DNA of 19,222 bases from a virus (lineage: Duplodnaviria; Heunggongvirae; Uroviricota; Caudoviricetes). Below, in pieces: positions 1-18,253 of the stretch. The position numbers and the translations under genes were made by a program. How positions within the stretch are numbered: position 1 is the first letter of the stretch; each line of letters opens with the position of its first letter. The stretch lies in IMG/VR virus record IMGVR_UViG_2654588181_000006, positions 1-19,222 of that record, one strand, 5' to 3'. Under the pieces are notes generated by a model. That model was not told the origin of the DNA, made no database searches, and was given only the letters and a program-made list of their open reading frames with translations.

Positions 1-55
1 GGTATCCGTTCTGCTGAAGTGTCATGGCGTTGATTTTACGGTGACTCTTCGACAG

Positions 56-83
56 TGAAAAGAAAAAAGGCCGCAGAGCGGCC
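56..83 (-). terminator. Rho-independent terminator-like hairpin
   Basis: Plus strand 69-83 is ggccgcagagcggcc (6-bp GC stem, 3-nt loop), preceded on the plus strand by an A-run; on the minus strand the hairpin is therefore followed by TTTTTTCTTTT. Lies about 105 bp downstream of the minus-strand cargo gene ending at 190. Confidence 0.45.
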
Positions 84-95
84 ATAAACACAAAC

Positions 96-170
96 AAAAA
101 TCAATAAGTTAGGTAATTATCAAAGACTTACAGACACACAAAAACACAGCCAACCACAACAAATAACAGG
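96..170. repeat. A/CA-rich low-complexity tract at probable prophage boundary
   Basis: Sequence acaaaaatcaataag...acagacacacaaaaacacagccaaccacaacaaataacag is strongly biased to A and C, unlike the flanking coding DNA. Function unknown. Confidence 0.3.
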
Positions 171-189
171 GATGTGGTCACTTTGTGGA

Positions 190-585
190 TCATTCGCTCC
201 CCTCTTTTTCCTTATTTCGTTGAACGCCAATTGCGACACACGTACTAAGCAAATCTTTACATTTCTCTACGTCTTCAGACTTACGCAATTTGATGCTTTT
301 TACAGACTGCGGGCTACTGTCCGTAGCACGATACATCGTTATTTCAATATCATTTCGGTCTAAGAGTCCCATAATGGCTTTTGCAACCTCCACACCCTTC
401 TTCGCGAAATCAAAGAACAGAGCAAGTTTATATGGATTTTCGACGGAAAAAACTTCAATTTTGCTAAAACCAACATCGTGTAGAGAAAAATATTGCTCAA
501 CCTCATCTCGAAGTTCTGGATCGCATACAATGTCTATTCTCCAGTACTGACCTAAATGCAAATCGCTATTAACTGTTTTTTCCAC
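190..585 (-). CDS. Hypothetical cargo protein (131 aa), translationally coupled to the integrase
   Basis: Six-frame ORF 190..606 (minus). A strong RBS AAGGAGG (complement of 591-597) sits 5 nt upstream of an in-frame GTG at 585..583 and overlaps the integrase stop codon (596-598). The stretch is visibly AT-rich compared with the phage core. No family recognised. Confidence 0.55.
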   Translation of the reverse strand: MEKTVNSDLHLGQYWRIDIVCDPELRDEVEQYFSLHDVGFSKIEVFSVENPYKLALFFDFAKKGVEVAKAIMGLLDRNDIEITMYRATDSSPQSVKSIKLRKSEDVEKCKDLLSTCVAIGVQRNKEKEGSE

Positions 586-595
586 AACATCCTCC

Positions 596-1570
596 TTACC
601 CAGCAATAGGATTAAATCTCACCGCATCCTGCAAGTAATCCGGCGCAAGATGGGCATAAATCATCGTTGTCTGAATCTTTGCGTGCCCCAGAATTTTCTG
701 GAGCGTCAGAATATTGCCGCCGTTCATCATGAAATGACTGGCGAAGGTGTGGCGCAGCGCATGAACAGCCTGGCCGTCAGGAACATCAGGTGCGACCGTT
801 TTGATGACATCGCGAACCAATGGATAATCCAGCGTCGGAAACACCAGTTTCCCGCCCCGTTTTTTGATCTTTTCAAACAGGCTTTCAGAAATAGGAACGG
901 TACGGTTTTTGCTGTTCTTCGTTTTTGAAAAAGTGATTCGACAATGAAGAACACGGCGCTGCTCCAGTGCCGCTACCTCGCCCCATCGCGCCCCGGTCGA
1001 CAGAAGGATTTCGACAGCCAGCCGTTCATCGGGATTTTCAGCCAGTGCATCCAGCAACTGAACACATTCAGACTTACTCAGATATCCCATTTCGCGCTCG
1101 TTAACCTTCATTCCTTTAAGGCCTTGAACGGGGTTATCGTTAAGAAAATGGCCGGATGAGATGAGTGCGGTAAACATCGCGCTTAACGCCCCAATCTCTC
1201 GATTTATGGTGCTGGGCTGTATCCCCTGCTCTATCCTGGACACACGTAGCTCGGTGAGCATCGTTGTATTAAGTTTATGCACGCACGGGTCATCCATTGC
1301 TTCACTCAAGCGCAGCAATTTAAGGCGCGTGTTATGCCCTGACTTCATTAGCTGGCCGTGGTATTTCCACCACAAGTCAATAAGCACTGACAGAGGACGG
1401 CGATCAATAGAGTTTCCTTTCCACTCATTGTTATGCTGTTGCGCCAGCACCCACCGCTCATATAAAACTGCATCCGATTTCGTTTTAAATTTTTTGCGAA
1501 TGCGTTTGCCTTTACGCCCCTCAGGGCGCATGTCAAGAAGATACCCTCCCGGAATTGATTTTATGCTCAT
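596..1570 (-). CDS. int: Phage tyrosine integrase (P2/P4-type site-specific recombinase)
   Basis: ORF 596..1720 (minus). C-terminal catalytic signature recognisable: ARWGE (Arg), HALRHTFAS (His-x-x-Arg), TMIYAHL (Tyr). N-terminus GGYLLDMRPEGRKGKRIRKKF resembles the arm-binding domain. Start chosen at ATG 1570..1568 (MSIKSIPGGY); the upstream extension to 1720 would overlap the repressor gene, so the start is uncertain. Confidence 0.9.
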   Translation of the reverse strand: MSIKSIPGGYLLDMRPEGRKGKRIRKKFKTKSDAVLYERWVLAQQHNNEWKGNSIDRRPLSVLIDLWWKYHGQLMKSGHNTRLKLLRLSEAMDDPCVHKLNTTMLTELRVSRIEQGIQPSTINREIGALSAMFTALISSGHFLNDNPVQGLKGMKVNEREMGYLSKSECVQLLDALAENPDERLAVEILLSTGARWGEVAALEQRRVLHCRITFSKTKNSKNRTVPISESLFEKIKKRGGKLVFPTLDYPLVRDVIKTVAPDVPDGQAVHALRHTFASHFMMNGGNILTLQKILGHAKIQTTMIYAHLAPDYLQDAVRFNPIAG

Positions 1571-1619: not shown

Positions 1620-1928
1620 TTAGCCGGGCTGTGTACCAGTCTTGCGGGATTTTTGAGAAGACGATGTGTTTTCTGGCCCATCAGGGGAGAGAGAGGGACT
1701 GATCTGCCCAGCAGCCTCATTTGTTTTTCCCGTCATAAGCCAATTCATGTACTTAAAAAAGCGAGGGTGATTAACAATCTTGATAAGCACTTCGCCCCCT
1801 ATGTTTTCAATCCGCCCCGTTTCATAACGACGCAAAGTGCCGATAGGCACATCAATCAGGCCGCAAAATTCTTCGCGCGTTAAATCCTCTGATTCACGAA
1901 TCACTCTAATTTTTTCACCGATAAGCAT
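1620..1928 (-). CDS. Immunity repressor (P2 C-like, HTH)
   Basis: ORF 1620..1964 (minus) begins with GTG inside the operator; the more plausible start is ATG 1928..1926 (MLIGEKIRVIRESEDLTREEFCGLIDVPIGTLRRYETG), giving about 102 aa. HTH-like segment present. Position between int and the divergent cox matches the P2 int-C-cox layout. Confidence 0.75.
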   Translation of the reverse strand: MLIGEKIRVIRESEDLTREEFCGLIDVPIGTLRRYETGRIENIGGEVLIKIVNHPRFFKYMNWLMTGKTNEAAGQISPSLSPDGPENTSSSQKSRKTGTQPG

Positions 1929-1940
1929 TGACAGTGTTCC

Positions 1941-1986
1941 TATAAGTACACTAAGCTTGCGCACAAGGTGTACTTATAAGTACACC
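1941..1986. promoter_or_regulatory. Immunity-switch operator (three copies of an 11-bp half-site, including a 20-bp perfect palindrome)
   Basis: GGTGTACTTATAAGTACACC at 1967-1986 is a perfect 20-bp palindrome. Its half-site TATAAGTACAC recurs as a direct copy at 1941-1951. It lies in the 96-bp divergent intergenic region between the C-like repressor (start 1928) and the cox-like gene (start 2025). Confidence 0.6.
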
Positions 1987-2024
1987 AAGTCACAAACAAC
2001 CACAGATAGCGCAGGTTATCACAC

Positions 2025-2303
2025 ATGGCAAAAGTCCTGAACACACACGAACAGGCAGACTTTGAGCGTTTAGCAGCGTTCTATCCCTACCGCGATGAGC
2101 ATGGGTTACCAGTACTTGAAGAAAGCCTGAAAGATTACGCAAAGCGTACCAACCAAGCTGTTAACACAGTGAAAAGACAGGCTGACAGAGGTTCAATTCC
2201 CATCAACCAAGATGAAAAGAACTCAAGACGCACAGTAAATCTCTTCGCTCTTTTCCTGAAAACAATCAGGAGCGCAGAAAAATACGTGCAGATGACAAAA
2301 TAA
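2025..2303 (+). CDS. cox: Cox-like excisionase / transcriptional regulator
   Basis: 92-aa ORF, ATG at 2025, divergent from the repressor. The segment DYAKRTNQAVNTVKRQADRGSIPIN matches the pattern I recall for the P2 Cox DNA-binding region (EFAKLIGKSTGAVRRMIDKGKLPVI). Similarity is from memory, not a search. Confidence 0.7.
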   Translation: MAKVLNTHEQADFERLAAFYPYRDEHGLPVLEESLKDYAKRTNQAVNTVKRQADRGSIPINQDEKNSRRTVNLFALFLKTIRSAEKYVQMTK

Positions 2304-4376: not shown

Positions 4377-4844
4377 TCAGAAACTGCACAACCAGCAAAT
4401 TAACCTTTCGGAGTAACGCAAATGTTCGCTGGCAGACAACCCAACAGATGCACTCGCTTTGTTTTTTGCGGGCCTGACAAACGCTTTCATGTATGCGCTG
4501 TTCGTTTCTTCCAGATGCAGAATGCGCTCAATGAGGCGTTCAGTACTCATGAAATCCCTTTGCGTAATCAGACGAAGGTAGCTCTGTTTCTGCCAGCACG
4601 CCCATTCGGCAACGCACTCAAACTTACTGCAAAACCAGGAAAAAACAAAAAACGCCAGCCCGCAAAGACTCATCAGGACGGGGAAACCTACGAGAAGAAA
4701 GGAGAATACCGCAGCAATCAGTGCCCCGGCGCGCAACACGGCAGCGGCTTTATTGCTGAGTATGAAAACCATCTCTTCCAGCCAGTAGCTGTACCACAGA
4801 TGGAAAAAAATCTTCTTGTCTGCTTGCTCCATAGCAACAGGCAT
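4377..4844 (-). CDS. Hypothetical membrane protein (155 aa) encoded antisense to the early operon
   Basis: ORF 4377..4850 (minus). ATG at 4844..4842 is preceded by GGAGG with a 7-nt spacer. The protein has a clear hydrophobic hairpin (AGALIAAVFSFLLVGFPVLMSLCGLAFFVFSWF). The plus-strand ORF overlapping it (4422..5537) is low-complexity and looks spurious. Confidence 0.55.
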   Translation of the reverse strand: MPVAMEQADKKIFFHLWYSYWLEEMVFILSNKAAAVLRAGALIAAVFSFLLVGFPVLMSLCGLAFFVFSWFCSKFECVAEWACWQKQSYLRLITQRDFMSTERLIERILHLEETNSAYMKAFVRPAKNKASASVGLSASEHLRYSERLICWLCSF

Positions 4845-5025
4845 AAACAACCTCCATTGTTAATAAACGCCGCTATCCTTCGGCGCATTCCATTTTTGCG
4901 CCGCGATTATACATACTTCAGCACGCAACACAAAAACCGCTTGCCAGCGCTCGTTGAGTCGGGTTACATTTCCGCTGCACCTCATAAAACGGGTGCCGGG
5001 ATTCTCAACCCGCTGACTACACACG

Positions 5026-5057
5026 CGCACAACCGCGCCAGCGGTTTTTTTGTGCGT
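5026..5057 (+). terminator. Terminator-like hairpin with U-tract
   Basis: ACCGC(5032-5036)-gcca-GCGGT(5041-5045) followed by seven T (5045-5051); flanking CGCACA (5026-5031) and TGTGCG (5052-5057) are also complementary. Short stem, so tentative. Confidence 0.3.
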
Positions 5058-5092
5058 ACTGTATTGCCACGTCTTATTCGCGTCAGAATTAT

Positions 5093-5168
5093 GGCGGGGC
5101 GTACGGGGCCGACTTCGGTCGGGCCGGGATCGTGTGTAGCCGGTGTTGAGAACCCCGTACGTCTCGCC
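5093..5168 (+). repeat. Inverted-repeat structured element with an inner C(UUCG)G hairpin
   Basis: GGCGGGGCGTACGGGG (5093-5108) pairs with CCCCGTACGTCTCGCC (5153-5168) at 14 of 16 positions, with a perfect 9-bp core. Inner hairpin CCGAC-TTCG-GTCGG at 5109-5122. The 10-mer GATTCTCAAC occurs at 5000-5009 and 5176-5185, and inverted (9 of 10) at 5145-5154. Confidence 0.35.
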
Positions 5169-5230
5169 ACCCCGAGATTCTCAACTCTGGATGGTGAGTT
5201 TTCAAAACTTACTATACACGAGGCCACGTC

Positions 5231-5461
5231 ATGGCAAACCGCAAGCAACAGCGCGCCCGCGCTGAGCGTATTCACATCCGCAGCGAAATCAACCGCAGAC
5301 TTTTTCGCGCAACACGCGTCGCGCAAATCATGCACATCAATATGTTGCATGAGCGCAGCCACGCACTATCAAACATTTATTCCGCCTCTGTTTTCAGCTA
5401 TCTGGCGGATGATCTGCACGAGCTTCAACAGCTCATCCAGCAGCAAAACAAACTCCATTAA
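5231..5461 (+). CDS. Hypothetical small basic protein (76 aa)
   Basis: ATG 5231 preceded by GAGG (5220-5223). N-terminus MANRKQQRARAERIHIRSEINRR is strongly basic. Lies immediately downstream of the structured region. Confidence 0.45.
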   Translation: MANRKQQRARAERIHIRSEINRRLFRATRVAQIMHINMLHERSHALSNIYSASVFSYLADDLHELQQLIQQQNKLH

Positions 5462-5533
5462 TTCCTGTTCCGGGCCTTTCCTGCACCTTGCGGCGGGAGG
5501 CCTTCGCACATCTGTAACAAGAGGATTGCCGCA

Positions 5534-5899
5534 ATGATTCTCGCCAACGACTTTCTTGAATACCTGCTCAACACAGAGCGTGATCTTGCCGCTCGCGTGC
5601 GTGATCGTTATGACATGTACCTGAAATCCCTGCCTGTACTGCAGCTCGCTGACGGAAAGATTGTTATTGATGGTCGCTACATGATTGACAGCCACGAGGG
5701 AAATTACAGGCTTTACCGCATTGAAGGTGGCACCCCGTCCGTTATTGGCATTTACCAGCGCCCATCCTCTGCAATCGTCGATGTGATTGCCGACAGCATC
5801 CGCATCACACATCGCCATGCCGACACAGAAGACACCGTGCTGGAAATTCAGCGGCTGGCTACAGTCTGCCGCGACACCCTGAATGGCATGACGAAGTAA
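5534..5899 (+). CDS. Hypothetical protein (121 aa) immediately upstream of gene A
   Basis: ATG 5534 preceded by AGAGGA; stop 7 nt before the gpA start. Confidence 0.6.
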   Translation: MILANDFLEYLLNTERDLAARVRDRYDMYLKSLPVLQLADGKIVIDGRYMIDSHEGNYRLYRIEGGTPSVIGIYQRPSSAIVDVIADSIRITHRHADTEDTVLEIQRLATVCRDTLNGMTK

Positions 5900-5905
5900 A
5901 TCACT

Positions 5906-8728
5906 ATGACGGCAGAGTACATCAGGGACTGGCAACAACCGCGCCACGCAGTGGGGCGTGAAGGAACGGGGATCCCCGCTCCTGAATCCGCGCTTTCCTC
6001 CTGGCTGGATGCCTACCGGGCTGAGAACGAGCGCCGCCAGGAAATGGCTGATGCGGCGTTCTCCGCCACACCGCTGGGCAACCTGATTAATAAAAGCCTG
6101 GACGCACAGGAAAAACAGGACAAAACCATCACACTGGCAGGAGACGCCAGAAAACAGGCACGCGGCGCGGTGGATGAAGCCATGGCCTCGCTGCGCCTGC
6201 TGCCGTCCTATCTGCGCGATCCGCTTATTCGCCACCTCTCCTTCCTGCGCAAAAAACAGGAAGCCGATCGCCGGAAAGGCAAAAAGAGCTGGCAGGCGGA
6301 ACGCTATGCACGCGGAACCCTGCGCAAAATATTCGAACGTCTGGATAGCACTGACGGACGCTGGCTGACACCGGGTTATCGCTCCCTTGCCGGACGCGAA
6401 CGCCTGGACGATTTGCTTTACCTGCCGCAGCTCAACAAACACCAGATACAGACGCTGGCCACCATGACGGCGGCGATGTTCAGCAGCACCTTCGAAAAAC
6501 TCTGCGATGGCTTTGGCGCGACCGATGGCGAGCTGACCATGGATGTAACCCTGAAGGCGTATCAGATGCTGGCCCGCATGGCGTTACACCTGCACGCCAT
6601 GCCTCCACATTATGACGCACTGACGACAGACAAAGACCGGAGGAACGAACCGGACACGGAGCTGCTGCCGGGCGCAATCCTTCGCCTGACCTGTGCGGAA
6701 TGGTGGAAACGCAAACTGTGGCTGTTACGTTGCGAGTGGAGAGAAGAACAACTCCGCGCCGCCTGTCTGGTTTCCAGAAAAACATCACCCTATCTGAGCC
6801 AGGACGCGTTAAGCGAGTTTCGCGCACAGCGCGAGAAAACACGCGATTTCCTGAAAAGTTTCATGCTGGAAAATGAAGACGGGTTCACGATTGATCTCGA
6901 GACAGTGTATTACGCGGGAGTAAGTAACCCGGTTCACCGTAAGGCAGAAATGATGGCCACCATGAAGGGGCTGGAACTTCTGGCCGAAGCCCGTGGCGAC
7001 AAAGCGGTGTTTCTGACTGTCACCTGCCCGTCAAAATACCACGCCACAACAGAGAACGGTCATCCGAATCCCAAATGGAACGGGGCCACCATGCGCGACT
7101 CCAGCGATTACCTGGTTAACACGTTTTTTGCAGCGGTCCGCAAGAAACTGAACCGCAACGGCCTGCGCTGGTATGGCATCCGCACGGTGGAGCCTCACCA
7201 TGACGGCACCGTGCACTGGCATATGATGGTCTTTGCTCATCCGGAAGAAATCGACACCATTGTGTCCCACACCCGCGATATTGCCATTCAGGAAGATCGT
7301 CACGAGCTGGGTGATGATATTACCCCACGCTTTAAGGCAGAGTACGTCGACGGTTCGAAAGGTACGCCGACCAGCTACATCGCCACCTACATCGGAAAGA
7401 ACCTGGACAGCCGCGCCGTGGGTGGCATTGACCCGAAAACAAGCAAGCCACGCGTTGATCACGAAACCGGAAAATCAATGGCCGAGAGCGTGGAACGCGC
7501 CATCGGCTGGGCGCGCCTTCACCGCGTCCGCCAGTTCCAGTTCTTTGGTATCCCCTCCCGTCAGGTATGGCGTGAACTCCGCCGCCTTGCCAGTCAGATG
7601 GCCCGCAACCCGGAAGGTCCACAACGTCTGGAAAATGACGCAATGGATGCGGTACTCGCTGCCGCTGATGCCGGGTGTTTTGCCACCTACATTGAGAAAC
7701 AGGGTGGCGTACTTGTTCCACGCAAGGATTACCTGATTCGCACCGCCTACGACCTCGCAGAAGAGCTGAACGATTACGGCGAGCAAAGCGTACAGATTTA
7801 CGGGATCTGGTCGCCACAAATCGGGGAATCTTCCCGCGTGTGCACGCACCCGGATAACTGGAAGCTGGTAAGACGTAAACCGGAAGCGGAAGACAGCGCC
7901 CGCGAAAATGGTTTTGACCTTCAGGGCGGCCCTGCCGCCCCTTGGACTCGTGGCAATAACTGTCCCCGTGTACAGGAAACGGACAACAACGGGACAGAAC
8001 AGCCGGAAGAACGGCCAGCACCGTGGCCGCAGCTCCCTGACGGCGTTGAAGTGAACGAATGGATGCGCTCACTGAAACGGCACGAACGCCGGGCGCTGAC
8101 GCGTTCGCTTCGTGACAAACAGGCAAAAAACAGCAGTGATGAAATGCAGAGCTGGACACAGAGCCGCAAACAGCAGCGGCCTTTGCCTGATAACCACGAA
8201 TTACTCGCTAAAGAATGGCGGGAGTCTGCTGAATCTCTCGGCCTGCATATCGGTGAACAACAGATGCAGCACCTGTTACGGGGCGGCAGTCTGTGCGTTG
8301 ACGGCAGCATCATTGCACCGCAGGGATTTGAAATTGTACGCAAACCGGATACCCGCCCGGACAGCCGAATCACGCAGCTCTGGCAGCGCCTGAGCCGTAA
8401 TCATGGCATAAGCAGCACGGAGATCCGCCATAACCCGGTCGCCAGCTATCTGGCACAGCTGGGGGCATCAGACCCTGAAGCCGCCGCACGCCTGGCATCC
8501 ACACTTCAGCAGGACCAGAACACCATGAAAACACCCGTTACCGTGCTTTCTGACATGCTGCGCGCCATCCGCGACGCAGAGCACGCACAGAGAATCAGTG
8601 AAACCACTGAACGCGCCAGCCGCAAAGCAGACCTGCTGCGGGGTAGCCTGACCAGTGGAAACAAAAAACAGACAGAAACGGGACTCACGAATCCCGTAAA
8701 TGAGCAAAAAACGCGCAGCGATATATGA
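5906..8728 (+). CDS. A: Rolling-circle replication initiation endonuclease (P2 gpA family)
   Basis: 940-aa ORF. HUH motif VHWHMMV at 7211-7231 and paired tyrosines in SYIATYIGKN (Y-x3-Y, 7376-7399) match the HUH relaxase/Rep catalytic arrangement of P2 A. Position after the cox-proximal early genes fits P2 synteny. Longer than the roughly 760 aa I recall for P2 A. Confidence 0.9.
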   Translation: MTAEYIRDWQQPRHAVGREGTGIPAPESALSSWLDAYRAENERRQEMADAAFSATPLGNLINKSLDAQEKQDKTITLAGDARKQARGAVDEAMASLRLLPSYLRDPLIRHLSFLRKKQEADRRKGKKSWQAERYARGTLRKIFERLDSTDGRWLTPGYRSLAGRERLDDLLYLPQLNKHQIQTLATMTAAMFSSTFEKLCDGFGATDGELTMDVTLKAYQMLARMALHLHAMPPHYDALTTDKDRRNEPDTELLPGAILRLTCAEWWKRKLWLLRCEWREEQLRAACLVSRKTSPYLSQDALSEFRAQREKTRDFLKSFMLENEDGFTIDLETVYYAGVSNPVHRKAEMMATMKGLELLAEARGDKAVFLTVTCPSKYHATTENGHPNPKWNGATMRDSSDYLVNTFFAAVRKKLNRNGLRWYGIRTVEPHHDGTVHWHMMVFAHPEEIDTIVSHTRDIAIQEDRHELGDDITPRFKAEYVDGSKGTPTSYIATYIGKNLDSRAVGGIDPKTSKPRVDHETGKSMAESVERAIGWARLHRVRQFQFFGIPSRQVWRELRRLASQMARNPEGPQRLENDAMDAVLAAADAGCFATYIEKQGGVLVPRKDYLIRTAYDLAEELNDYGEQSVQIYGIWSPQIGESSRVCTHPDNWKLVRRKPEAEDSARENGFDLQGGPAAPWTRGNNCPRVQETDNNGTEQPEERPAPWPQLPDGVEVNEWMRSLKRHERRALTRSLRDKQAKNSSDEMQSWTQSRKQQRPLPDNHELLAKEWRESAESLGLHIGEQQMQHLLRGGSLCVDGSIIAPQGFEIVRKPDTRPDSRITQLWQRLSRNHGISSTEIRHNPVASYLAQLGASDPEAAARLASTLQQDQNTMKTPVTVLSDMLRAIRDAEHAQRISETTERASRKADLLRGSLTSGNKKQTETGLTNPVNEQKTRSDI

Positions 8729-8804: not shown

Positions 8805-9737
8805 ATGAAAATTTGTATCGACGACGGCTCCACCAACATCAAGCTGGCATGGACTGAGAACGGCGAACGCCGCAACGCCATCAGCCCGAACAGCTTCAAG
8901 TCGGAATGGTCTGCGCCGTTCGGCGGCACGCAGCCCGCGAACTACATGCTTGATGGCGTGCGCTATGGTTTTGATCCGGTCAGCGATCGCTTTGTCCAGA
9001 CGACCGACACGCAATACCAGTACAGCGATGTGAATGTCATTGCCATTCATCACGCGCTGGTCAAATCAGGCATCACGCCACAGGAGGTGGATGTGGTTGT
9101 CACCCTGCCACTGAGCGAGTATTTCGACACAAACGCACAGCCGGACATGGCCAACATCAACCGCAAAAAAGCGAACGTTATGCGCCCGGTGGAGTACCAG
9201 AACGGCGAAGCATTCACTATCCGTAACGTGCGGGTTATGCCTGAATCCATTCCGGCTGGCTTTAAGGCACTGGCTGACATGAGTCCGTTTGAATCCCTGC
9301 TGATTGTGGATTTGGGCGGAACCACGCTGGATGTGGCAAAGGTTCAGGGGCAACTGGCAGGTATCAGCCAGGTGTTTTGCGATCCACACGTAGGCGTTTC
9401 TCTGATGGCCGATGCCGTACTGTCGGTGATGGCCACTAACGGTATGCGCACCAGTCACCACATCGCCAATACCATTATCGAACATCGCCATGATGAAGCC
9501 TGGCTGCGCCAGCACATCCACAATGACGCGCATTACGCCAGCCTGATGGCGGTTATTCGTGAAAAGGAAGAAACACTGAAACAACGCGTGATCCGCGCGC
9601 TGGCGGGTTTTTCGGGTTACGGGAAGTTACAGGAACTGATGCCACTGGCGATCGTATGGCCTCCGCCACCGGGCGGGAGCTGGCCGCAACAACAGGGACC
9701 AGCGCCGGAGGCAGCGGAGCCGGGACCACGGGTGTGA
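8805..9737 (+). CDS. ParM/StbA-like actin-family ATPase, 3' end apparently truncated or replaced
   Basis: N-terminus MKICIDDGSTNIKLAW closely matches the ParM start (MLVFIDDGSTNIKLQW, from memory), with further blocks SPNSFK, QYSDVNV..HHAL, PESIPAGF, DLGGTT, IIEHRHD and LAGFSGYGK. After about residue 270 (near nt 9626) the reading frame turns proline-rich (LAIVWPPPPGGSWPQQQGPAPEAAEPGPRV) and overlaps the convergent tape-measure ORF, so the actin-fold C-terminus is probably missing. Confidence 0.65.
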   Translation: MKICIDDGSTNIKLAWTENGERRNAISPNSFKSEWSAPFGGTQPANYMLDGVRYGFDPVSDRFVQTTDTQYQYSDVNVIAIHHALVKSGITPQEVDVVVTLPLSEYFDTNAQPDMANINRKKANVMRPVEYQNGEAFTIRNVRVMPESIPAGFKALADMSPFESLLIVDLGGTTLDVAKVQGQLAGISQVFCDPHVGVSLMADAVLSVMATNGMRTSHHIANTIIEHRHDEAWLRQHIHNDAHYASLMAVIREKEETLKQRVIRALAGFSGYGKLQELMPLAIVWPPPPGGSWPQQQGPAPEAAEPGPRV

Positions 9738-12267
9738 TATTAATTGCGGGGGCAGGCTTACTGACCTGTGCAATCTTTCGCTCCTGCCACTCCCCACGAA
9801 CAGCAAGTGCGCGGGGCAGGTTCTTAAAGACAATATCGCCGGGGCCAATACGTTTTTTTGTCTCATCAACCAGCTTACCTGTGTTATCAGCAATTTTGCT
9901 GAGTCTGCGTAGCGTCCCGGTATTGCTGTCTGTGAGTGGTTTGTTGTCTTTGGGTTTATCACCCCCGGTGCCATTGCCATTTTCCACAGGCTTCGGCGGA
10001 TTGATTTTCGCCAGGTCCCCCTGAAGCAAGGCAACCTTGTCCTGAAGAATGGCCGCACGCTGTGCGTCTTCGATTTTCTTGCGCGCCCTTTCCGCTTCAT
10101 CCGGAAGGACGCCAAGTTTTTCAAGTATCCACGCCAGCGTATCCAGTAGCATTTTTGCAGGTGTCAGAACAAGCTGTAACGCACCGCCAAGAACGTTACC
10201 GAATATCTCGCCAGCACTGGTACATTTATCCAGCGTTTCCTTGCTGGACTCCATCGGTGACAGCAGCGATTTAAACCAGTTAAACACCTGACTGATCCCG
10301 CTTCCGATTGCGTCAAAAACAGGGCCAAACCGTTCAAAGGTTTCGCGCAACGGAGCCAGCCGTTCCATAATCCCGCTGAACACCCCGGCATAAAACGCCT
10401 TAATGGGTTCCCAGTATTTCCAGATGAGAACCGCCGCAGCCACAAACGCAGCAGCAATCAATCCGACCGGACTGAACAGCGCCCCGATAGCACCCCCCAG
10501 CAAAGAAACGGAACCCGTCACCATTCCCCATAGTGCTGGCAGGACCCTGACAGCATTCATTGATCCGGTCAGGAGAGAAAAACCAAGACGCAGTTTTGCC
10601 AGCGGGCCAGCAAGCACACCAATAGCCAGCGACAACGAGCCAACCGTTGCAGTCATTGCCAGCAACGCACCGCCTGCTATCAGTAGCTGGCGCGTCAGTA
10701 CCGGATGGGCCTGCGCCAGCGAGGTGATTTTTTCAAGCACCCGCGTGAGCCACTGCGTGACAGAACGCAGCGGACCGTCAACCAGATCACTGATGCGAAT
10801 ACGAAGACCTTCCCATGCGCTGTCGAGATTTTTCAGGTCCCCATCAAGATTATCGGCCATTACTTTTGCAACGCGATCGGCCTCTCCCCTTGCCCCCTGC
10901 AATTCTCTGGTCAGTTTTTGCAGCTCTCCTGAACCAGCCGCCGCAACAAGCGTCTGCAAACCAACGAACGCCTCTTCTCCGGCGATGTCCTTGAAGAAGG
11001 AAACCTGGTCCACCTGTCCGTATTTTTGTGTCGCCTTATAGAGATCAAGCAGCACATCCTCCATCGGGCGCATTTTGCCTCTGGCGTCAGCAACTGACAC
11101 TCCCAGCTCTTTCAGCGCATCAGCCGCAGCTTTTGGCGGTGATGCAAGGCGGGACAGACTTGCGCGCATGGCCGTACCAGCATCGCTTCCACGAAGGCCA
11201 TTATTGGCAAGCATCCCGGCCATGGCTGCCGCTTCTTCAAGACTGATACCAAGTTTTGCGGCAACCGGACCGGTATACTTCATGGTTTCGCCCAGCGCGC
11301 GTAAATCAGTATTGGTCCGGGTGAATGCCGCTGTCAGCGTATCGCCAACCCGGTCCATTTGATCGGCTGTCAGGTTGAACTGTGTGAGGATATTGGAGCC
11401 TATATCAGCCGTCTCGCCGAGTTCGACGCCACCTGCCAGCGCCATATTAAGAACACCGGGCAATGCGGCCTGAATGGCCTGCGGAGTAAAACCAGCCATT
11501 GCAAGAAATGCCTGTCCACTGGCGGCATCGCCTGCGGTGAACTGCGTTTCAGAGCCAAGTTTTAACGCCTGCTCACGCAGCGCCTTAAACTGCGGGCTGT
11601 TCTGGTCGATTCGCGTCAGTGCCTGAACGCGGGACATCTCTTTGCCGAACCCGATCGCAGGCTGCAAAAAACGCCCGGCAGCATAGCCGCCCGCCGCTGC
11701 CGCACCAATTGCCAGCGCACCACCTGTTTTCAGTTTTCCCGCTGTTTCCTGCGCGCGCGAATACCGCTCACGCGCCCGCGTTACACGCGCAAGCGCCTGC
11801 CGTTCGCGTTCAAGCTGGTTGTTGTACTGTTCGGTGCGTCTGATGGCCTGCTGGATGGTGTTATCGCTGCCTGTCAGGGAAATGCCGTGGCGTTTCAGCT
11901 CTCCGCCAAGTTCCCGCATTTTCTGAATTTCCCGTGTGCGCGATTCATTCAGGCGTTCAAGCCGGGTGCTTAACTGCTGCATCAGCTTTTGTTGTTTTTC
12001 GCTGAGCACTGTACCCGTGCGTTGTAACTGATTAAGGGCATTAAGCTGGCGTCGTGCTTTCAATATGCCAGCATCCGCTTTACTGACAGCGTCACGGGCG
12101 CGCTCAAATGAACGCGCCTGACGCTCGAGATTTTTGATCGCCCCCTGCGTTCGCTGGATGGAGTCACCAAACTGCCCCATCAGGCGGCAGGCGTTTTCGG
12201 CAGGCCGGGTCAGCCTGTCAACGGCGCTGAAAGCGACCCGGATATCAAGAGTCTTCATTATCTGCAT
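9553..12267 (-). CDS. T: Tail tape measure protein (P2 gpT-like)
   Basis: 904-aa ORF: N-terminal coiled-coil region, Gly/Ala-rich hydrophobic central segments, and position directly downstream of the E/E' chaperone pair with a 23-nt overlap. The last 70 or so residues are P/A/V-rich and read antisense into the ParM-like gene, so the native 3' end is uncertain. Confidence 0.85.
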   Translation of the reverse strand: MQIMKTLDIRVAFSAVDRLTRPAENACRLMGQFGDSIQRTQGAIKNLERQARSFERARDAVSKADAGILKARRQLNALNQLQRTGTVLSEKQQKLMQQLSTRLERLNESRTREIQKMRELGGELKRHGISLTGSDNTIQQAIRRTEQYNNQLERERQALARVTRARERYSRAQETAGKLKTGGALAIGAAAAGGYAAGRFLQPAIGFGKEMSRVQALTRIDQNSPQFKALREQALKLGSETQFTAGDAASGQAFLAMAGFTPQAIQAALPGVLNMALAGGVELGETADIGSNILTQFNLTADQMDRVGDTLTAAFTRTNTDLRALGETMKYTGPVAAKLGISLEEAAAMAGMLANNGLRGSDAGTAMRASLSRLASPPKAAADALKELGVSVADARGKMRPMEDVLLDLYKATQKYGQVDQVSFFKDIAGEEAFVGLQTLVAAAGSGELQKLTRELQGARGEADRVAKVMADNLDGDLKNLDSAWEGLRIRISDLVDGPLRSVTQWLTRVLEKITSLAQAHPVLTRQLLIAGGALLAMTATVGSLSLAIGVLAGPLAKLRLGFSLLTGSMNAVRVLPALWGMVTGSVSLLGGAIGALFSPVGLIAAAFVAAAVLIWKYWEPIKAFYAGVFSGIMERLAPLRETFERFGPVFDAIGSGISQVFNWFKSLLSPMESSKETLDKCTSAGEIFGNVLGGALQLVLTPAKMLLDTLAWILEKLGVLPDEAERARKKIEDAQRAAILQDKVALLQGDLAKINPPKPVENGNGTGGDKPKDNKPLTDSNTGTLRRLSKIADNTGKLVDETKKRIGPGDIVFKNLPRALAVRGEWQERKIAQVSKPAPAINITPVVPAPLPPALVPVVAASSRPVAEAIRSPVASVPVTSRNPKNPPARGSRVVSVFLPFHE

Positions 12268-16114: not shown

Positions 16115-18253
16115 TCAGGCAATCTCGCGACCAACATCGTCATTTGCCGCAAAAGCTGATAGTAACAAATTATCACACTCAGTTATGACATATTCTGGAA
16201 TGAGATCGAATCTAGCCGGATCCAGCTGGCAGATAAACTCATTTTCGATATGATAGGTTTCATTAATAAATTTCTGAATTACAGAGTTTGTATGCTCAAT
16301 ACCCATTAACCTGAAAACTTGCAATTTTTCGTAGCTACTTTTGCAACTGAAATAAAGCGTGGTGAGAAAGTTTTCGCAGGTGATTTTTGCTAGCTCTACC
16401 TTATAGTTGAAATCTGGAATATGATTAATTATTTCGTGACAACCTAAATTTTCACTAACTTCTGACATTAACGAATATTCCCCGTCGATCTTCGCCAAGC
16501 GCCTATCCTCCAGAAATTCCCGCTTATGAAAAAGATTTGAAAGCACTTGATAGGCATCCCCCAGATCATCAAGGATTTCGTAATGACGGCGAAGATATAT
16601 CAACTTAATAATATCGTCACTCACAGACTGTAGAGCCGATGTGCAGATTTGAGCAAAAGTTTTGATATCCGAATTTGAAATTGGTTGCTCTGTAATAACA
16701 CCATTACTGTAGCGGAGATAAGCTGCTGAAACTTGATTATCAAATTGCTGCCTAACAGCGCGAATAGTATCGATGATTGGCTCAACATCATGCGTCAACA
16801 TCAGCACTGTTTTACTCTTAAGACAATCAGATGGCTCTCTACGAAAAAGCATTTCAAGAATCGCAAACTTCTTATTTTTATCGAACGAGGAAATGGGATC
16901 ATCCAAAATAATCAGACTTGGTTTTCTAGAAAGACATTCATACATGAAGAGCACGAGGGCAAACGCATTTCTTTCACCGTAACTTAGATGTTGGCTACCA
17001 CCAGTGACGACATCTGTATGATCTACATGATAGAGTTGTAGTCGTGGCTGTGCATCGTCTGTTATCCGCACACGGTAACGATAACCAGCATAGGATAGAA
17101 AATCATTGATATTTTTTTGGTGCTTTATAACGAGCTGGCGTACTTTATTCCGCTGCTGATTCAGTTTACCCTGAAGTGGTCCAGCGCTTGCAATTAGATC
17201 AGTCAGAGAAGTATTGAGTGCATCAACAATACGTGTGGTTTCTTCTGATTGAAGTTCAGTAAAGAAGTCCAGATTCAACTTGTAAGAGGCGAGTTTAGCA
17301 GCTACATCGTCTCCTTCTGTGAAGCTAAATCCGGAAAGCGTTTTAAGCACGGTAAGTTTATCTATTAGATCATCTGTTTGAGATTTAAGGGTGATAAGAT
17401 ATGTTTCATGCTGCTGCTCAAGACCATTAGGAAGGGTTGTGATTTCTTTAAGACGATCACGGGCAGAGTCAGTAAGGTAAATTCCTAAACGCTGAATGAC
17501 ATCAACAAGCTCCATCAAATTTTTGATGACAGCTTGGTCATATTCTACTCCAACCTGTTGAATTCGTTGTTGTTGTTGTTCGGTAGATTCACTACTGCAA
17601 TAAGGACAGTACTCACCCGCAAGTTCACCAAACTCTGTTAGCCCTTTTGTCTGCCAAGCAATCCACTGCACACTTTTATTACTAGTTATCATGTTTCTGT
17701 ACGGTTCAAGTGCGGCAGGGATATGAAGAAGTTTATTACCTCCAGCAAGCGCTTTCATACCCTTTGTACTTTTACTAAGAGCAGATGCTGCAGTGACTTT
17801 AAATGCACTGGATAAAACAGTGAGATCGCTCAATAGGGTTTCCAGTTGTGTATGCTCGGTAAACACCTGACGGATCGTCGAAATAATTAATTCTATTTCA
17901 CTCTCTGTTCTGATATACGCGTCAGTTTTGATTAATATATCGAAACTGTTGGCTACAAGCTCATCCTGACGGAATGTGAACTGGCTAACATACTCCTCAT
18001 TGAAACACATTATATTATCTAGTTGTTCCATTCCGGTCACAGAGGGCGCAACATTATCGGGGTTATTTGCCCTGAATTTAAAAGGAAGTAATTCTGCCAA
18101 ACAAGCTTCCTGCCCAGGCAAACTGAACTGCATCGCCCGAGCAATAGTGCTTTTCCCTGTACCATTCGGCGCAAAACGAATATTCAACTTTTTTTCGGCT
18201 AGAGAAACAGTAGCAAAGTCAATGCTATTACAGTAACTAATTTCAATTTCCAT
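16115..18253 (-). CDS. ABC/Rad50-type ATPase with CxxC zinc hook and C-terminal putative nuclease domain (RloC/PrrC-like architecture); candidate anti-phage defence protein
   Basis: 712-aa ORF; ATG 18253..18251 preceded by AAGAAGG with a 7-nt spacer. Walker A APNGTGKST (18146-18172); about 380 aa of predicted coiled coil containing EYCPYCSS (CxxC, 17597-17608); signature-like LSYGERN (16967-16987); Walker B LIILDD (16898-16915); H-loop LTHD; then a roughly 225-aa C-terminal domain with a candidate Rx5H motif RLMGIEH (16292-16312). The gene is visibly AT-rich and opposite in orientation to the flanking D and ogr. Confidence 0.8.
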   Translation of the reverse strand: MEIEISYCNSIDFATVSLAEKKLNIRFAPNGTGKSTIARAMQFSLPGQEACLAELLPFKFRANNPDNVAPSVTGMEQLDNIMCFNEEYVSQFTFRQDELVANSFDILIKTDAYIRTESEIELIISTIRQVFTEHTQLETLLSDLTVLSSAFKVTAASALSKSTKGMKALAGGNKLLHIPAALEPYRNMITSNKSVQWIAWQTKGLTEFGELAGEYCPYCSSESTEQQQQRIQQVGVEYDQAVIKNLMELVDVIQRLGIYLTDSARDRLKEITTLPNGLEQQHETYLITLKSQTDDLIDKLTVLKTLSGFSFTEGDDVAAKLASYKLNLDFFTELQSEETTRIVDALNTSLTDLIASAGPLQGKLNQQRNKVRQLVIKHQKNINDFLSYAGYRYRVRITDDAQPRLQLYHVDHTDVVTGGSQHLSYGERNAFALVLFMYECLSRKPSLIILDDPISSFDKNKKFAILEMLFRREPSDCLKSKTVLMLTHDVEPIIDTIRAVRQQFDNQVSAAYLRYSNGVITEQPISNSDIKTFAQICTSALQSVSDDIIKLIYLRRHYEILDDLGDAYQVLSNLFHKREFLEDRRLAKIDGEYSLMSEVSENLGCHEIINHIPDFNYKVELAKITCENFLTTLYFSCKSSYEKLQVFRLMGIEHTNSVIQKFINETYHIENEFICQLDPARFDLIPEYVITECDNLLLSAFAANDDVGREIA

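Follow-up and report, generated by a model that had tools for sequence, protein, structure and literature searches.

A cargo gene in the int-att interval of a P2-like Escherichia coli prophage, with a candidate role in phage exclusion

What is a small, AT-rich open reading frame (ORF) doing between the integrase gene (int) of a prophage and its attachment site, and what might its product do? The question is raised by the ORF at one end of the window, i.e., the whole stretch of 19,222 nucleotides that was analysed and to which all positions refer (Table 1). It belongs to a P2-like prophage of E. coli that has integrated at a site flanked by ihfA and btuC. The ORF is an ordinary cargo gene, probably part of the lysogenic operon, in an already published minor P2 hotspot. 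The best explanation as a whole is that of an accessory gene expressed with the Pc operon and serving in exclusion or defence, to which, taken in its entirety, we give about an even chance of being right.

Table 1. Features around the int-att interval of the prophage
Feature	Positions	Strand	Description
att core (attL, prophage/host junction)	59-83	minus	duplicate of the intrinsic terminator of host ihfA, with stem 83-69 (GGCCGCTCTGCGGCC) and T-run 68-59
P' arm spacer of attP	84-172		AT-rich, 34% GC; kept whichever cargo is beyond
Two direct arm-type Int-binding repeats	173-191	plus	TGTGGTCA at 173-180 and TGTGGATC at 184-191; read from the sequence
Cargo ORF	190-585	minus	GTG start codon; soluble product of 131 aa with pI 5.15, predicted to fold as two-layer alpha/beta
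int/cargo junction	586-598	minus	int stop TAA 598-596, Shine-Dalgarno AAGGAGG 597-591, spacer ATGTT 590-586
int, P2-family tyrosine integrase, 324 aa	596-1570	minus	Pfam Int_N + Phage_integrase; phrog_1; RefSeq annotation of the E2348/69 relative
C-type immunity repressor (HTH)	1620-1928	minus	Pfam HTH_3, phrog_147, annotation
Switch region, C / cox-like gene	1929-2024		two copies of a direct repeat, TATAAGTACAC (1941-1951, 1975-1985), as putative C operators
Cox-like excisionase/repressor, candidate directionality factor	2025-2303	plus	phrog_11533 (E 1e-54); phrog_575 'Cox-like excisionase and repressor' (E 1e-7)

The frame of 131 codons runs from a GTG at 585-583 to a TGA at 192-190. In the program-made ORF list the frame is longer and begins with a TTG at 606 (138 aa), but all homologues of the ORF start at M-E/K-K-T, which is the position of the GTG and not that of the TTG. 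The AAGGAGG sequence shares the two last bases of the int stop codon and is separated from the GTG by the 5-nt spacer ATGTT. The initial annotation had described a 131-aa ORF directly 3' of int on the same strand, richer in AT than int, with AAGGAGG over the int stop and a GTG 5 nt further on; the coordinates agree, both translation signals lie at that place, and the GC content is 39.6% in the ORF (GC3 35.6%) against 49.1% in int (GC3 52.9%) and 50.6% in the whole window, only 8.5% of 396-bp windows being equally AT-rich. The base composition of the ORF differs from that of int in three orthologous loci too, and GC content across all orthologues is 38-41% for the ORF versus 52-53% for int.

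On the side opposite to int, a terminator scan detected a terminator 106 nt beyond the ORF stop. A terminator at the prophage edge, about 105 bp past the ORF, had been proposed from the outset, and its place at the prophage/host junction stands; the refinement is that it is a copy of the host ihfA terminator and not phage sequence. Because window positions 1-83 match all 5426 of 5426 complete E. coli genomes, and because attL, attR and the unoccupied site have AAGAAAAAAGGCCGCAGAGCGGCC in common, the terminator of the att core is a duplication of the one belonging to ihfA. Further inward, the two repeats TGTGGTCA and TGTGGATC agree with the arm consensus of P2-type integrases, tgTGGaCa (PMC3448106). 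The ORF lies within the element bounded by the att sites, with the int stop on one side of it and the arm sites of attP on the other, and its stop codon (190-192) overlaps the second repeat; it thus fills exactly the interval from the last codons of int to the P' arm.

This interval behaves as a slot for exchangeable cargo. The int/arm module is present in 306 of the 5426 complete E. coli genomes, and 152 of these 306 have the cargo ORF. The remaining module carriers hold in the same slot an unrelated two-gene cassette, encoding a Zn-ribbon protein and a tail-anchored coiled-coil protein, neither of which shows a relationship to the ORF family. Cassettes B, C and D are flanked by 98-99% identical int and by an identical arm, and window positions 84-197 are 98% identical in prophages with other cassettes. 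The breakpoints fall at ...AGATTTAATCC in int and at GATCCACAAAGTGACCAC on the att side, the latter arm block forming the att-side boundary of every cassette; the slot is bounded by the final four or five int codons and by the P' arm-type Int-binding repeats. Each cassette type supplies its own int tail together with a ribosome-binding site (RBS) placed 2-11 nt ahead of the first start codon. A circular P2-like element of Klebsiella has the same slot and arm block. In phage Wphi, int and ogr are separated by 273 bp that include attP and are free of genes; as cargo is missing there, the slot is dispensable, as is also seen in the prophages with this int, about half of which hold other cargo.

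In a survey published in 2026 (NAR; PMC13586616), the int-att interval of P2-like prophages is listed as a minor defence hotspot and accounts for 3% of P2 defence systems. Unrelated alternative cassettes between near-identical int and arm sequences strengthen the cargo reading, and together with the hotspot survey (PMC13586616) they bear out the initial proposal that the int-to-att interval holds cargo here; that the ORF is a moron in the P2-like int-att hotspot is very probable indeed. The published hotspot likewise has unrelated cassettes between conserved flanks, and its host range agrees with that of the present slot, i.e., E. coli, Salmonella and Klebsiella (PMC13586616; for P2/P4 hotspots more generally, Rousset et al. 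2022, PMC9122126). By contrast, the published int-att hotspot is defined by recognised defence systems, and neither the ORF nor the alternative cassette matches any of them. Three elements of the present description are not among the passages considered of PMC13586616 and PMC9122126: the exact boundaries of the slot (last int codons and arm repeat), the design with an RBS at the int stop, and a sister family on the opposite side of attP. Cargo is carried here within the integration module without disturbing attP, of which the locus provides a tidy example.

In P2, C is the first gene of a lysogenic operon that includes int, both being expressed from Pc (PMC3936717). By analogy, the switch region is presumed to hold Pc and Pe; a simple promoter scan of 1929-2024 detected no strong minus-strand promoter consensus. 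The promoter scan recognised no promoter belonging to the cargo ORF itself either. The ORF would thus be the last gene transcribed from a lysogenic Pc-C-int operon, and by comparison with P2 its expression is probably driven by Pc. From this place in the operon and the absence of a promoter of its own, we infer that the gene is expressed in the lysogen. The C-int-ORF transcript would stop at the ihfA terminator copy of the att core, which would also keep read-through out of btuC. Translation would start from the strong Shine-Dalgarno sequence that overlaps the int stop. Judging from this geometry, coupling to the translation of int is plausible, and at most plausible, because no significant RNA structure sequesters the RBS at the junction (z = 0.46); no Rfam family was found within 1-700. 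The proposed cargo design would therefore combine an own RBS at the int stop, a borrowed lysogenic promoter and a host terminator copied in the att core.

Looking for the gene at the same position in relatives, as initially suggested, located it in other E. coli, in Salmonella and in a greA-adjacent prophage, with an int-ORF gap of 10-11 nt in each. Among these same-position orthologues, dN/dS is 0.20-0.30 at dS 0.6-1.4, which identifies the ORF as a real gene under purifying selection; the value for int is 0.06-0.08 at similar dS. The ORF and int have co-diverged in E. coli, in Salmonella and in the prophage that occupies a different att site. Across many genera, 43 full-length homologues agree in length and in the position of the start. 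An exhaustive HMM search of 1.84 billion representatives returned 16 matches, the credible ones all being members of the ORF family, and of 5.8 billion clusters searched with a profile, 69 matched, all from Enterobacterales and all 'hypothetical'. The long co-divergence and this wide spread suggest a stable accessory gene of the phage rather than defence cargo with a fast turnover.

The initial annotation had recognised no motif, and the sensitive homology and structure searches that followed gave no functional lead. Neither Pfam nor NCBIfam matched the ORF, PADLOC-DB 2.0 yielded no family even at E <= 10, and a Pfam search with the 43 members of the family (E <= 1) gave nothing indicative of function. 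A sequence profile search of the PDB with the family returned a single match at E 0.47, i.e., no relative. The ORF matches phrog_14142 over its full length (E 4.4e-70; residues 1-128 aligned to positions 1-128 of a 128-position profile), but this membership says nothing on mechanism, as the family is without annotated function and without a member in sequenced phage records. Indeed, neither blastn and tblastn with the ORF nor tblastn with a remote homologue found the family in 50,697 sequenced phage records; this absence says little either way, since the int lineage is missing there too (at most 56% identity to sequenced phage isolates). Two AlphaFold models (pLDDT 74.9 and 81.6) predict the order b-a-b-b-a-b-b-a-b, a six-stranded alpha/beta sandwich, and Foldseek of the model against BFVD returned nothing at E <= 0.001. 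No catalytic signature was seen in the product. In the literature, accession WP_000416304 was found in no paper, the supplements consulted of Rousset et al. 2022 (PMC9122126) list neither this accession nor those of the cassettes, and nothing useful was found on DUF1640 in defence.

Of the conceivable roles of the ORF product, phage exclusion is the most likely one, and the protein makes a fair candidate for a novel factor of this kind. We nevertheless hold only tentatively, somewhat short of an even chance, that it serves to exclude competing phages or satellites or to defend against them. As a small soluble alpha/beta protein, it would act in the lysogen by binding some target. At the main P4 hotspot, six of eight sampled genes of unknown function gave phage protection (PMC13586616). 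Among the closest parallels are the classical conversion genes of P2, old, tin and fun(Z), which are non-essential, compositionally foreign, lysogen-expressed and able to exclude other phages (summarised in PMC9122126). The cargo ORF resembles them as a foreign prophage gene; they differ from it in locus (the gpA-Q interval and the tail region), show no sequence relationship to it and are far larger or enzymatic. For the ORF, exclusion is a candidate role. Counted in favour of defence is the retention of the ORF in degraded prophages: the present window is without head, lysis and baseplate genes and has kept it, some O111 strains keep it beside a truncated int, and Pectobacterium prophage remnants still carry a homologue. 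Also in favour is the PADLOC candidate system PDC-S06, which the same prophage carries at another variable site. Counted against defence are the lack of any PADLOC, Pfam, NCBIfam, PDB or BFVD relative, the long co-divergence with int in a family widespread in Enterobacterales P2-like prophages, and the fact that a lone 131-aa soluble protein without enzymatic or membrane feature would be an unusual effector.

A rival reading is a role in counter-defence or establishment. The protein would be produced from Pc along with Int within minutes of infection, at the choice of lysogeny, and would neutralise an immunity component of the host or of a resident prophage through binding or sequestration. 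A small, mildly acidic, soluble product with an orphan fold and no enzymatic motif is typical of phage inhibitors, the gene is linked to int, which is required at establishment only, and its amino-acid sequence changes faster than that of int. We consider this role unlikely: the product resembles no solved anti-defence protein, the gene stays intact in defective prophages that are no longer able to infect, and the membrane-anchored protein of the alternative cassette is a better fit to lysogen-expressed exclusion.

Quite unlikely, in our estimate, is that the ORF encodes a lysogenic-conversion factor whose effect would be on the physiology of the host, be it stress, metabolism, virulence or regulation, rather than on its susceptibility to phages. 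Its moron position in the lysogenic operon would suit such a factor, as would its frequency in pathogenic lineages (E2348/69, O111, O104:H4, ETEC). Its fold class also resembles that of the small-ligand-binding ACT, PII-like and CutA domains, but the similarity to these ferredoxin-like domains is low (Z <= 5.7 with the better model, the top match being a designed protein), and the ORF model differs from them by extra strands and by the absence of any sequence signal or ligand-binding motif.

The position of the gene next to the arm sites brings up a further reading, in which the product is an accessory factor of attP/Int recombination or the gene insulates att from transcription. In the int-side members of the family, the stop codon overlaps the P' arm repeats that the gene adjoins. 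Remote homologues (~30% identity) lie on the opposite attP flank of other P2-like prophages, just inside the P arm near hok/ogr, at raiA, dsbB, mlaA, ihfA and further sites, always in the orientation of int. Even so, this reading is very unlikely. Near-identical int and arm sequences also occur with the unrelated cassette, P2 and Wphi integrate with an empty slot, the prophage already has a Cox-like directionality factor, the ORF product is without DNA-binding fold or motif, and 5'-truncated copies are common in the family. Both att flanks also carry other cargo (pemIK, hok, a methylase remnant), so that hotspots explain the adjacency of the ORF to att. For the family as a whole, we regard as highly improbable an attP-associated factor that would modulate integration and excision by Int, or couple transcription through att to the state of the prophage; the basis for it is that both branches abut arm-type Int sites, at no fewer than five integration sites, in the orientation of int. 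If true, it would define a novel type of accessory protein in phages with tyrosine recombinases.

That the ORF is non-functional, whether as a fortuitous reading frame, as a pseudogene in decay or as a piece of an interrupted host gene, is scarcely credible: it is AT-rich with a non-ATG start and no known domain, and a few truncated variants are known (P0002, P0004, P0006, P0007, P0011), but dN/dS stays at 0.20-0.30 over dS up to 1.4, the 43 full-length homologues keep length and start, the fold is predicted with confidence (pLDDT 81.6), and a host origin is rejected since host sequence reaches only to 83 and nothing of the ORF is present at the unoccupied ihfA-btuC site. Several specific assignments of the product were also rejected. 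A PD-(D/E)xK nuclease built on the conserved D79/E81/E83/K99/R101 fails for want of the ExK motif and of fold support, and a Zn site at H10/C21/C45/C109 is contradicted by a common E. coli variant with V45. A recombination directionality factor of the Cox/Xis/Apl type is inconsistent with the alpha/beta fold, the absence of a match to any HTH family and the Cox-like gene at 2025-2303. The ORF stands alone in the interval from int to the arm repeats, which does not fit a toxin-antitoxin module, and Pfam and NCBIfam returned no toxin or antitoxin domain for it.

If the ORF or the alternative cassette does exclude phages, the slot would be a compact source of one- and two-gene immunity factors, and one that is easy to mine, because its boundaries, the int codons ...AGATTTAATCC and the GATCCACAAAGTGACCAC arm repeat, are exact. 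The practical value is modest: the locus offers a testable candidate in well-studied strains (E2348/69) and no new principle.

The 131-codon gene that directly follows int is an uncharacterised cargo gene of the int-att hotspot of P2-like prophages, a hotspot that is itself already known. The window is E. coli chromosome running from directly upstream of btuC into a P2-like prophage. Its positions 1-2000 are 99.5-99.7% identical to the closest complete genomes, among them EPEC strain E2348/69, whose RefSeq order reads btuC, hypothetical protein (131 aa, WP_000416304.1), phage integrase, HTH repressor and, further on, replication endonuclease. Positions 1-83 are found in 5426 of 5426 complete E. 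coli genomes, and in the same set the sequence past position 83 is restricted to genomes with this prophage family. Where no prophage is inserted, the order is ihfA, its terminator, btuC. When the empty site was compared with the left junction (window) and the right junction (E2348/69), all three were found to contain AAGAAAAAAGGCCGCAGAGCGGCC, which corresponds to the intrinsic terminator of ihfA (stem-loop plus A/T run). This sharing indicates that the terminator at the prophage edge is the att core, a host-derived sequence duplicated upon integration. Two direct repeats inside the prophage fit the published arm-type consensus of P2-type integrases, tgTGGaCa (PMC3448106), and the other arm in E2348/69 carries a similar pair, TGTGGACG...CGTGGAAC. 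Because this prophage family integrates beside btuC, the BtuC permease counted as a phage auxiliary metabolic gene in a 2026 survey of P2-like viruses (PMC13100340) may be a prophage-boundary artefact.

The initial annotation had described the gene as a same-strand ORF, more AT-rich than int, with a ribosome-binding site on the int stop codon, a GTG start 5 nt further on, and an end about 105 bp before a terminator. All of this holds. The spacer is ATGTT, the GC content is 39.6% (GC3 35.6%) against 49.1% (GC3 52.9%) for int and 50.6% for the window, and the stop codon, which overlaps the final bases of the second arm repeat, lies 106 nt from the stem of the terminator, i.e., the att-core copy of that of ihfA. 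In a simple consensus scan, neither the int-ORF interval nor the 3′ part of int showed a promoter on the minus strand, and the RNA of the int/ORF junction has no significant structure (z = 0.46). The geometry would allow translational coupling to int but does not prove it.

Features of the window and of comparison loci from other genomes or elements (L handles)
Feature	Locus	Position	Strand	Remarks
Terminator at prophage edge	window	stem 83-69, T-run 68-59	minus	terminator scan
Arm-type direct repeats	window	TGTGGTCA 173-180; TGTGGATC 184-191		90-108 bp inside prophage; read from sequence
Cargo ORF	window	GTG 585-583 to TGA 192-190	minus	131 codons
Shine-Dalgarno AAGGAGG	window	597-591	minus	overlaps int stop
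int	window	596-1570	minus	Pfam Int_N + Phage_integrase; TAA 598-596
C-like repressor	window	1620-1928
Direct repeat TATAAGTACAC	window	1941-1951; 1975-1985		34 bp apart; C/cox intergenic (switch) region
Cox-like gene	window	2025-2303
isrK	window	4977-5051	plus	Rfam, 61.8 bits
C4 antisense RNA	window	5087-5174	plus	Rfam, 76.8 bits
gpA	window	5906-8728
ParM-like actin-family gene	window	8805-9737		after gpA; overlaps tape-measure gene
Truncated tape-measure gene	window	9553-12267	minus
AAA_13/ABC-type ATPase, 712 aa	window	16115-18253	minus	between gpD and ogr
Two-gene Zn-ribbon/coiled-coil system	L003; L014; L015; L036	4209-5008; 410-1448; 409-1084; 2973-3788		at least four diverged versions
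5′-truncated family copies	L030; L027-L029; NZ_CM149560.1	4880-5174; 5001-5174; 2187335-2187685
P-arm hairpin	L022; L020; L030; L005	6560-6600; 6516-6545; 4838-4866; about 17995-18025
Methyltransferase remnant	L020	6560-6700	minus	motif DPFMGSGTT

As the initial annotation had proposed to check, the gene occupies the same position in related prophages. Orthologues with a 10-11 nt gap after int are present at the btuC site in other E. coli (77% amino-acid identity) and in Salmonella (61%), and in a prophage beside a greA/greB-family gene (46-47%). Their start codons differ (GTG, GTG, ATG, TTG). All 3′ ends read ...TGATCCACAAAGTG(A/G)CCAC, which joins the stop codon to the arm repeat, and all have a GC content of 38-41% versus 52-53% for int. 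Nei-Gojobori comparison of the three orthologues with the window gene gave dN/dS values of 0.20, 0.24 and 0.30 (dS 0.64, 1.23 and 1.40), against 0.08, 0.08 and 0.06 (dS 0.86, 1.28 and 1.48) for int in the matching pairs. Selection therefore constrains the ORF, but three to five times more weakly than int, and since its synonymous divergence tracks that of int, their linkage is old. This is a real, selected gene, long carried along with int.

What fills the interval between int and the arm repeats is exchanged between prophages. The int/arm query was matched in 306 of the 5426 complete E. coli genomes, 152 of which carry the ORF (counted where one place covers at least 80% of the query). In the remainder, int is 98-99% identical and the arm unchanged, with other genes in between: pairs encoding 120 + 145 aa, 166 + 145 aa (the latter ‘DUF1640’; O157:H7 and O145 strains) or 127 + 99 aa. 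All three cassettes represent a single two-gene system in different versions. Its first protein carries two CxxCG zinc-ribbon knuckles and a FFRFLxEK motif, and the second, annotated DUF1640 in some cases, has a coiled coil and a C-terminal membrane anchor. The proteins have no match above noise in Pfam, NCBIfam or PADLOC, and the system is a candidate exclusion system. From prophage to prophage, homology ends at (T)GATCCACAAAGTGACCAC on the att side and after ...AGATTTAATCC, four to five codons ahead of the int stop, on the int side. Each cassette brings its own int tail and ribosome-binding site (AAGGAGG, AGGAGG, GGGAGG or GAAGG), 2-10 nt before the first start codon. A circular 32-kb P2-like element of Klebsiella has int (56% identical), a 3-nt gap, the zinc-ribbon and coiled-coil/membrane genes and then TGATCCACAAAGTGTCCAC, a design which places the cargo inside the mobile unit. 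In phage Wphi, int is separated from ogr by 273 bp and the slot is empty. Moron-type cargo, as first suggested for this interval, is supported by this exchange and by a published study, which describes the int-att interval of P2-like prophages as a minor hotspot, atypical yet real (PMC13586616); Rousset et al. 2022 treat the main hotspots of P2 and P4 (PMC9122126).

Homology searching and structure prediction, as the initial annotation had recommended, gave no functional match. The protein matches phrog_14142 over its full length (E 4e-70), its sole named match and a family without assigned function. The 131-residue protein (pI 5.15) has no hydrophobic segment, and its AlphaFold model (43-sequence alignment; pLDDT 81.6, pTM 0.75) has the order b-a-b-b-a-b-b-a-b. 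Foldseek against viral structures returned nothing at E <= 0.001, and a profile search of PDB sequences and a Pfam search with every family member were empty. Among 1.84 billion representative proteins, exhaustive HMM searching yielded 16 matches, about 11 of them credible family members, and a profile search of 5.8 billion clusters yielded 69, none named and all from Enterobacterales (Escherichia, Salmonella, Citrobacter, Enterobacter, Klebsiella, Raoultella, Yokenella, Kosakonia, Pectobacterium, Yersinia and Pantoea). The family conserves the motif IMGLL(N/D)RNDxEIE and charged residues D79, E81, E83, K99 and R101 on adjacent strands, none of which could be assigned to any known active site. 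H10, C21, C45 and C109 hardly vary across the family, but the presence of V45 in the common E. coli variant speaks against any obligatory metal site.

Family members 45-78% identical to the window protein are located after int; the other end of the prophage holds members of about 30-39% identity, most of them 128 aa long. There, the order is host gene (raiA, dsbB, mlaA or others), att core, arm repeats, hairpin, ORF, and hok and/or ogr reading oppositely; one Citrobacter locus has the raiA stop, the terminator (core), GTCCACATATCGACCACAT (arm repeats), a second terminator-like hairpin, a ribosome-binding site and ATG. In the circular phage, the family ORF lies between hok/ogr and int and has the same transcription direction as int in both arrangements, with the crossover point downstream of it in one and upstream in the other. 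Other cargo of this flank comprises pemIK, hok and a DNA methyltransferase remnant; the remnant lies between the P-arm and a remote homologue (L020), and the pemIK pair in the equivalent flank of two further loci (L009, L010). Remnant and pemIK together make the hok/ogr side of attP a cargo site as well. We read the two arrangements as two cargo hotspots flanking attP rather than as a functional tie to recombination.

Truncated copies of the remote branch, called as 57-aa ORFs from the invariant M72 (MGLLNRND), are widespread beside hok. In an E. coli prophage at the ihfA site (L030), the copy is flanked by hok and by the attR-side arm repeats/hairpin, and upstream homology reaches family position 45 and no further; other copies (L027-L029) lie beside hok at different host sites. 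In one complete genome, MEI7BO1-21, a truncated hok-side copy coexists with the full int-side gene. Just inside the P-arm repeats, several P2-like prophages share a conserved hairpin followed by TTTGTCTTAT (AAGCCCGC...GCGGGCTT; in L022, AAAAACCCC...GGGGTTTTTT), oriented such that it would stop transcripts crossing att from the host gene or from int. In L022, it lies about 15 nt ahead of the start of the remote homologue, hence no promoter is visible for that gene.

In P2, the lysogenic promoter Pc drives expression of both repressor C and Int and is itself repressed by Cox (PMC3936717). The window has the same layout, with a C-like repressor, a switch region whose TATAAGTACAC repeats are probably operators of the repressor, and a Cox-like gene. 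The ORF would be the final cistron of a Pc-C-int operon, and so its product would be made both at establishment and in the lysogen; translation would begin at the ribosome-binding site on the int stop and the transcript would end at the att-core terminator. Phage or satellite exclusion is tentatively the likeliest single role, on the grounds of the hotspot position, of retention in defective prophages (the window prophage, where gpA leads to a truncated tape-measure gene and head, lysis and baseplate genes are absent; O111 strains with a truncated int; Pectobacterium remnants with a homologue) and of the hit rate for unknown hotspot genes: in the main P4 hotspot, six of eight randomly chosen ones protected against phages, according to PMC13586616. 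Counter-defence, acting at establishment, is unlikely, conversion of host physiology slightly more so, and an att-linked role, which the two-hotspot reading disfavours, is improbable. That a gene under such selection has no function is hardly credible. The gene favoured here as an exclusion candidate offers no new principle; its interest is that of a clean, testable candidate with an orphan fold in an exactly modular slot.

The window prophage is defective: the terminase, portal, capsid, lysis and baseplate genes of its E2348/69 relative are missing, which leaves an element of about 19.5 kb instead of about 36.5 kb. Along its full length, the 712-aa ATPase matches PDC-S06, a candidate system in PADLOC (E 2e-277), and E2348/69 has a different gene (221 aa) at this position, which makes it a further variable cargo site. 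A mechanically listed ORF (4422-5537) spans the tandem isrK and C4 RNAs; its product matches the Ash domain weakly (E 2.7e-4, short of the Pfam cutoff). The region resembles a C4-controlled module of P1/P7 type within the early region of a P2-like phage.
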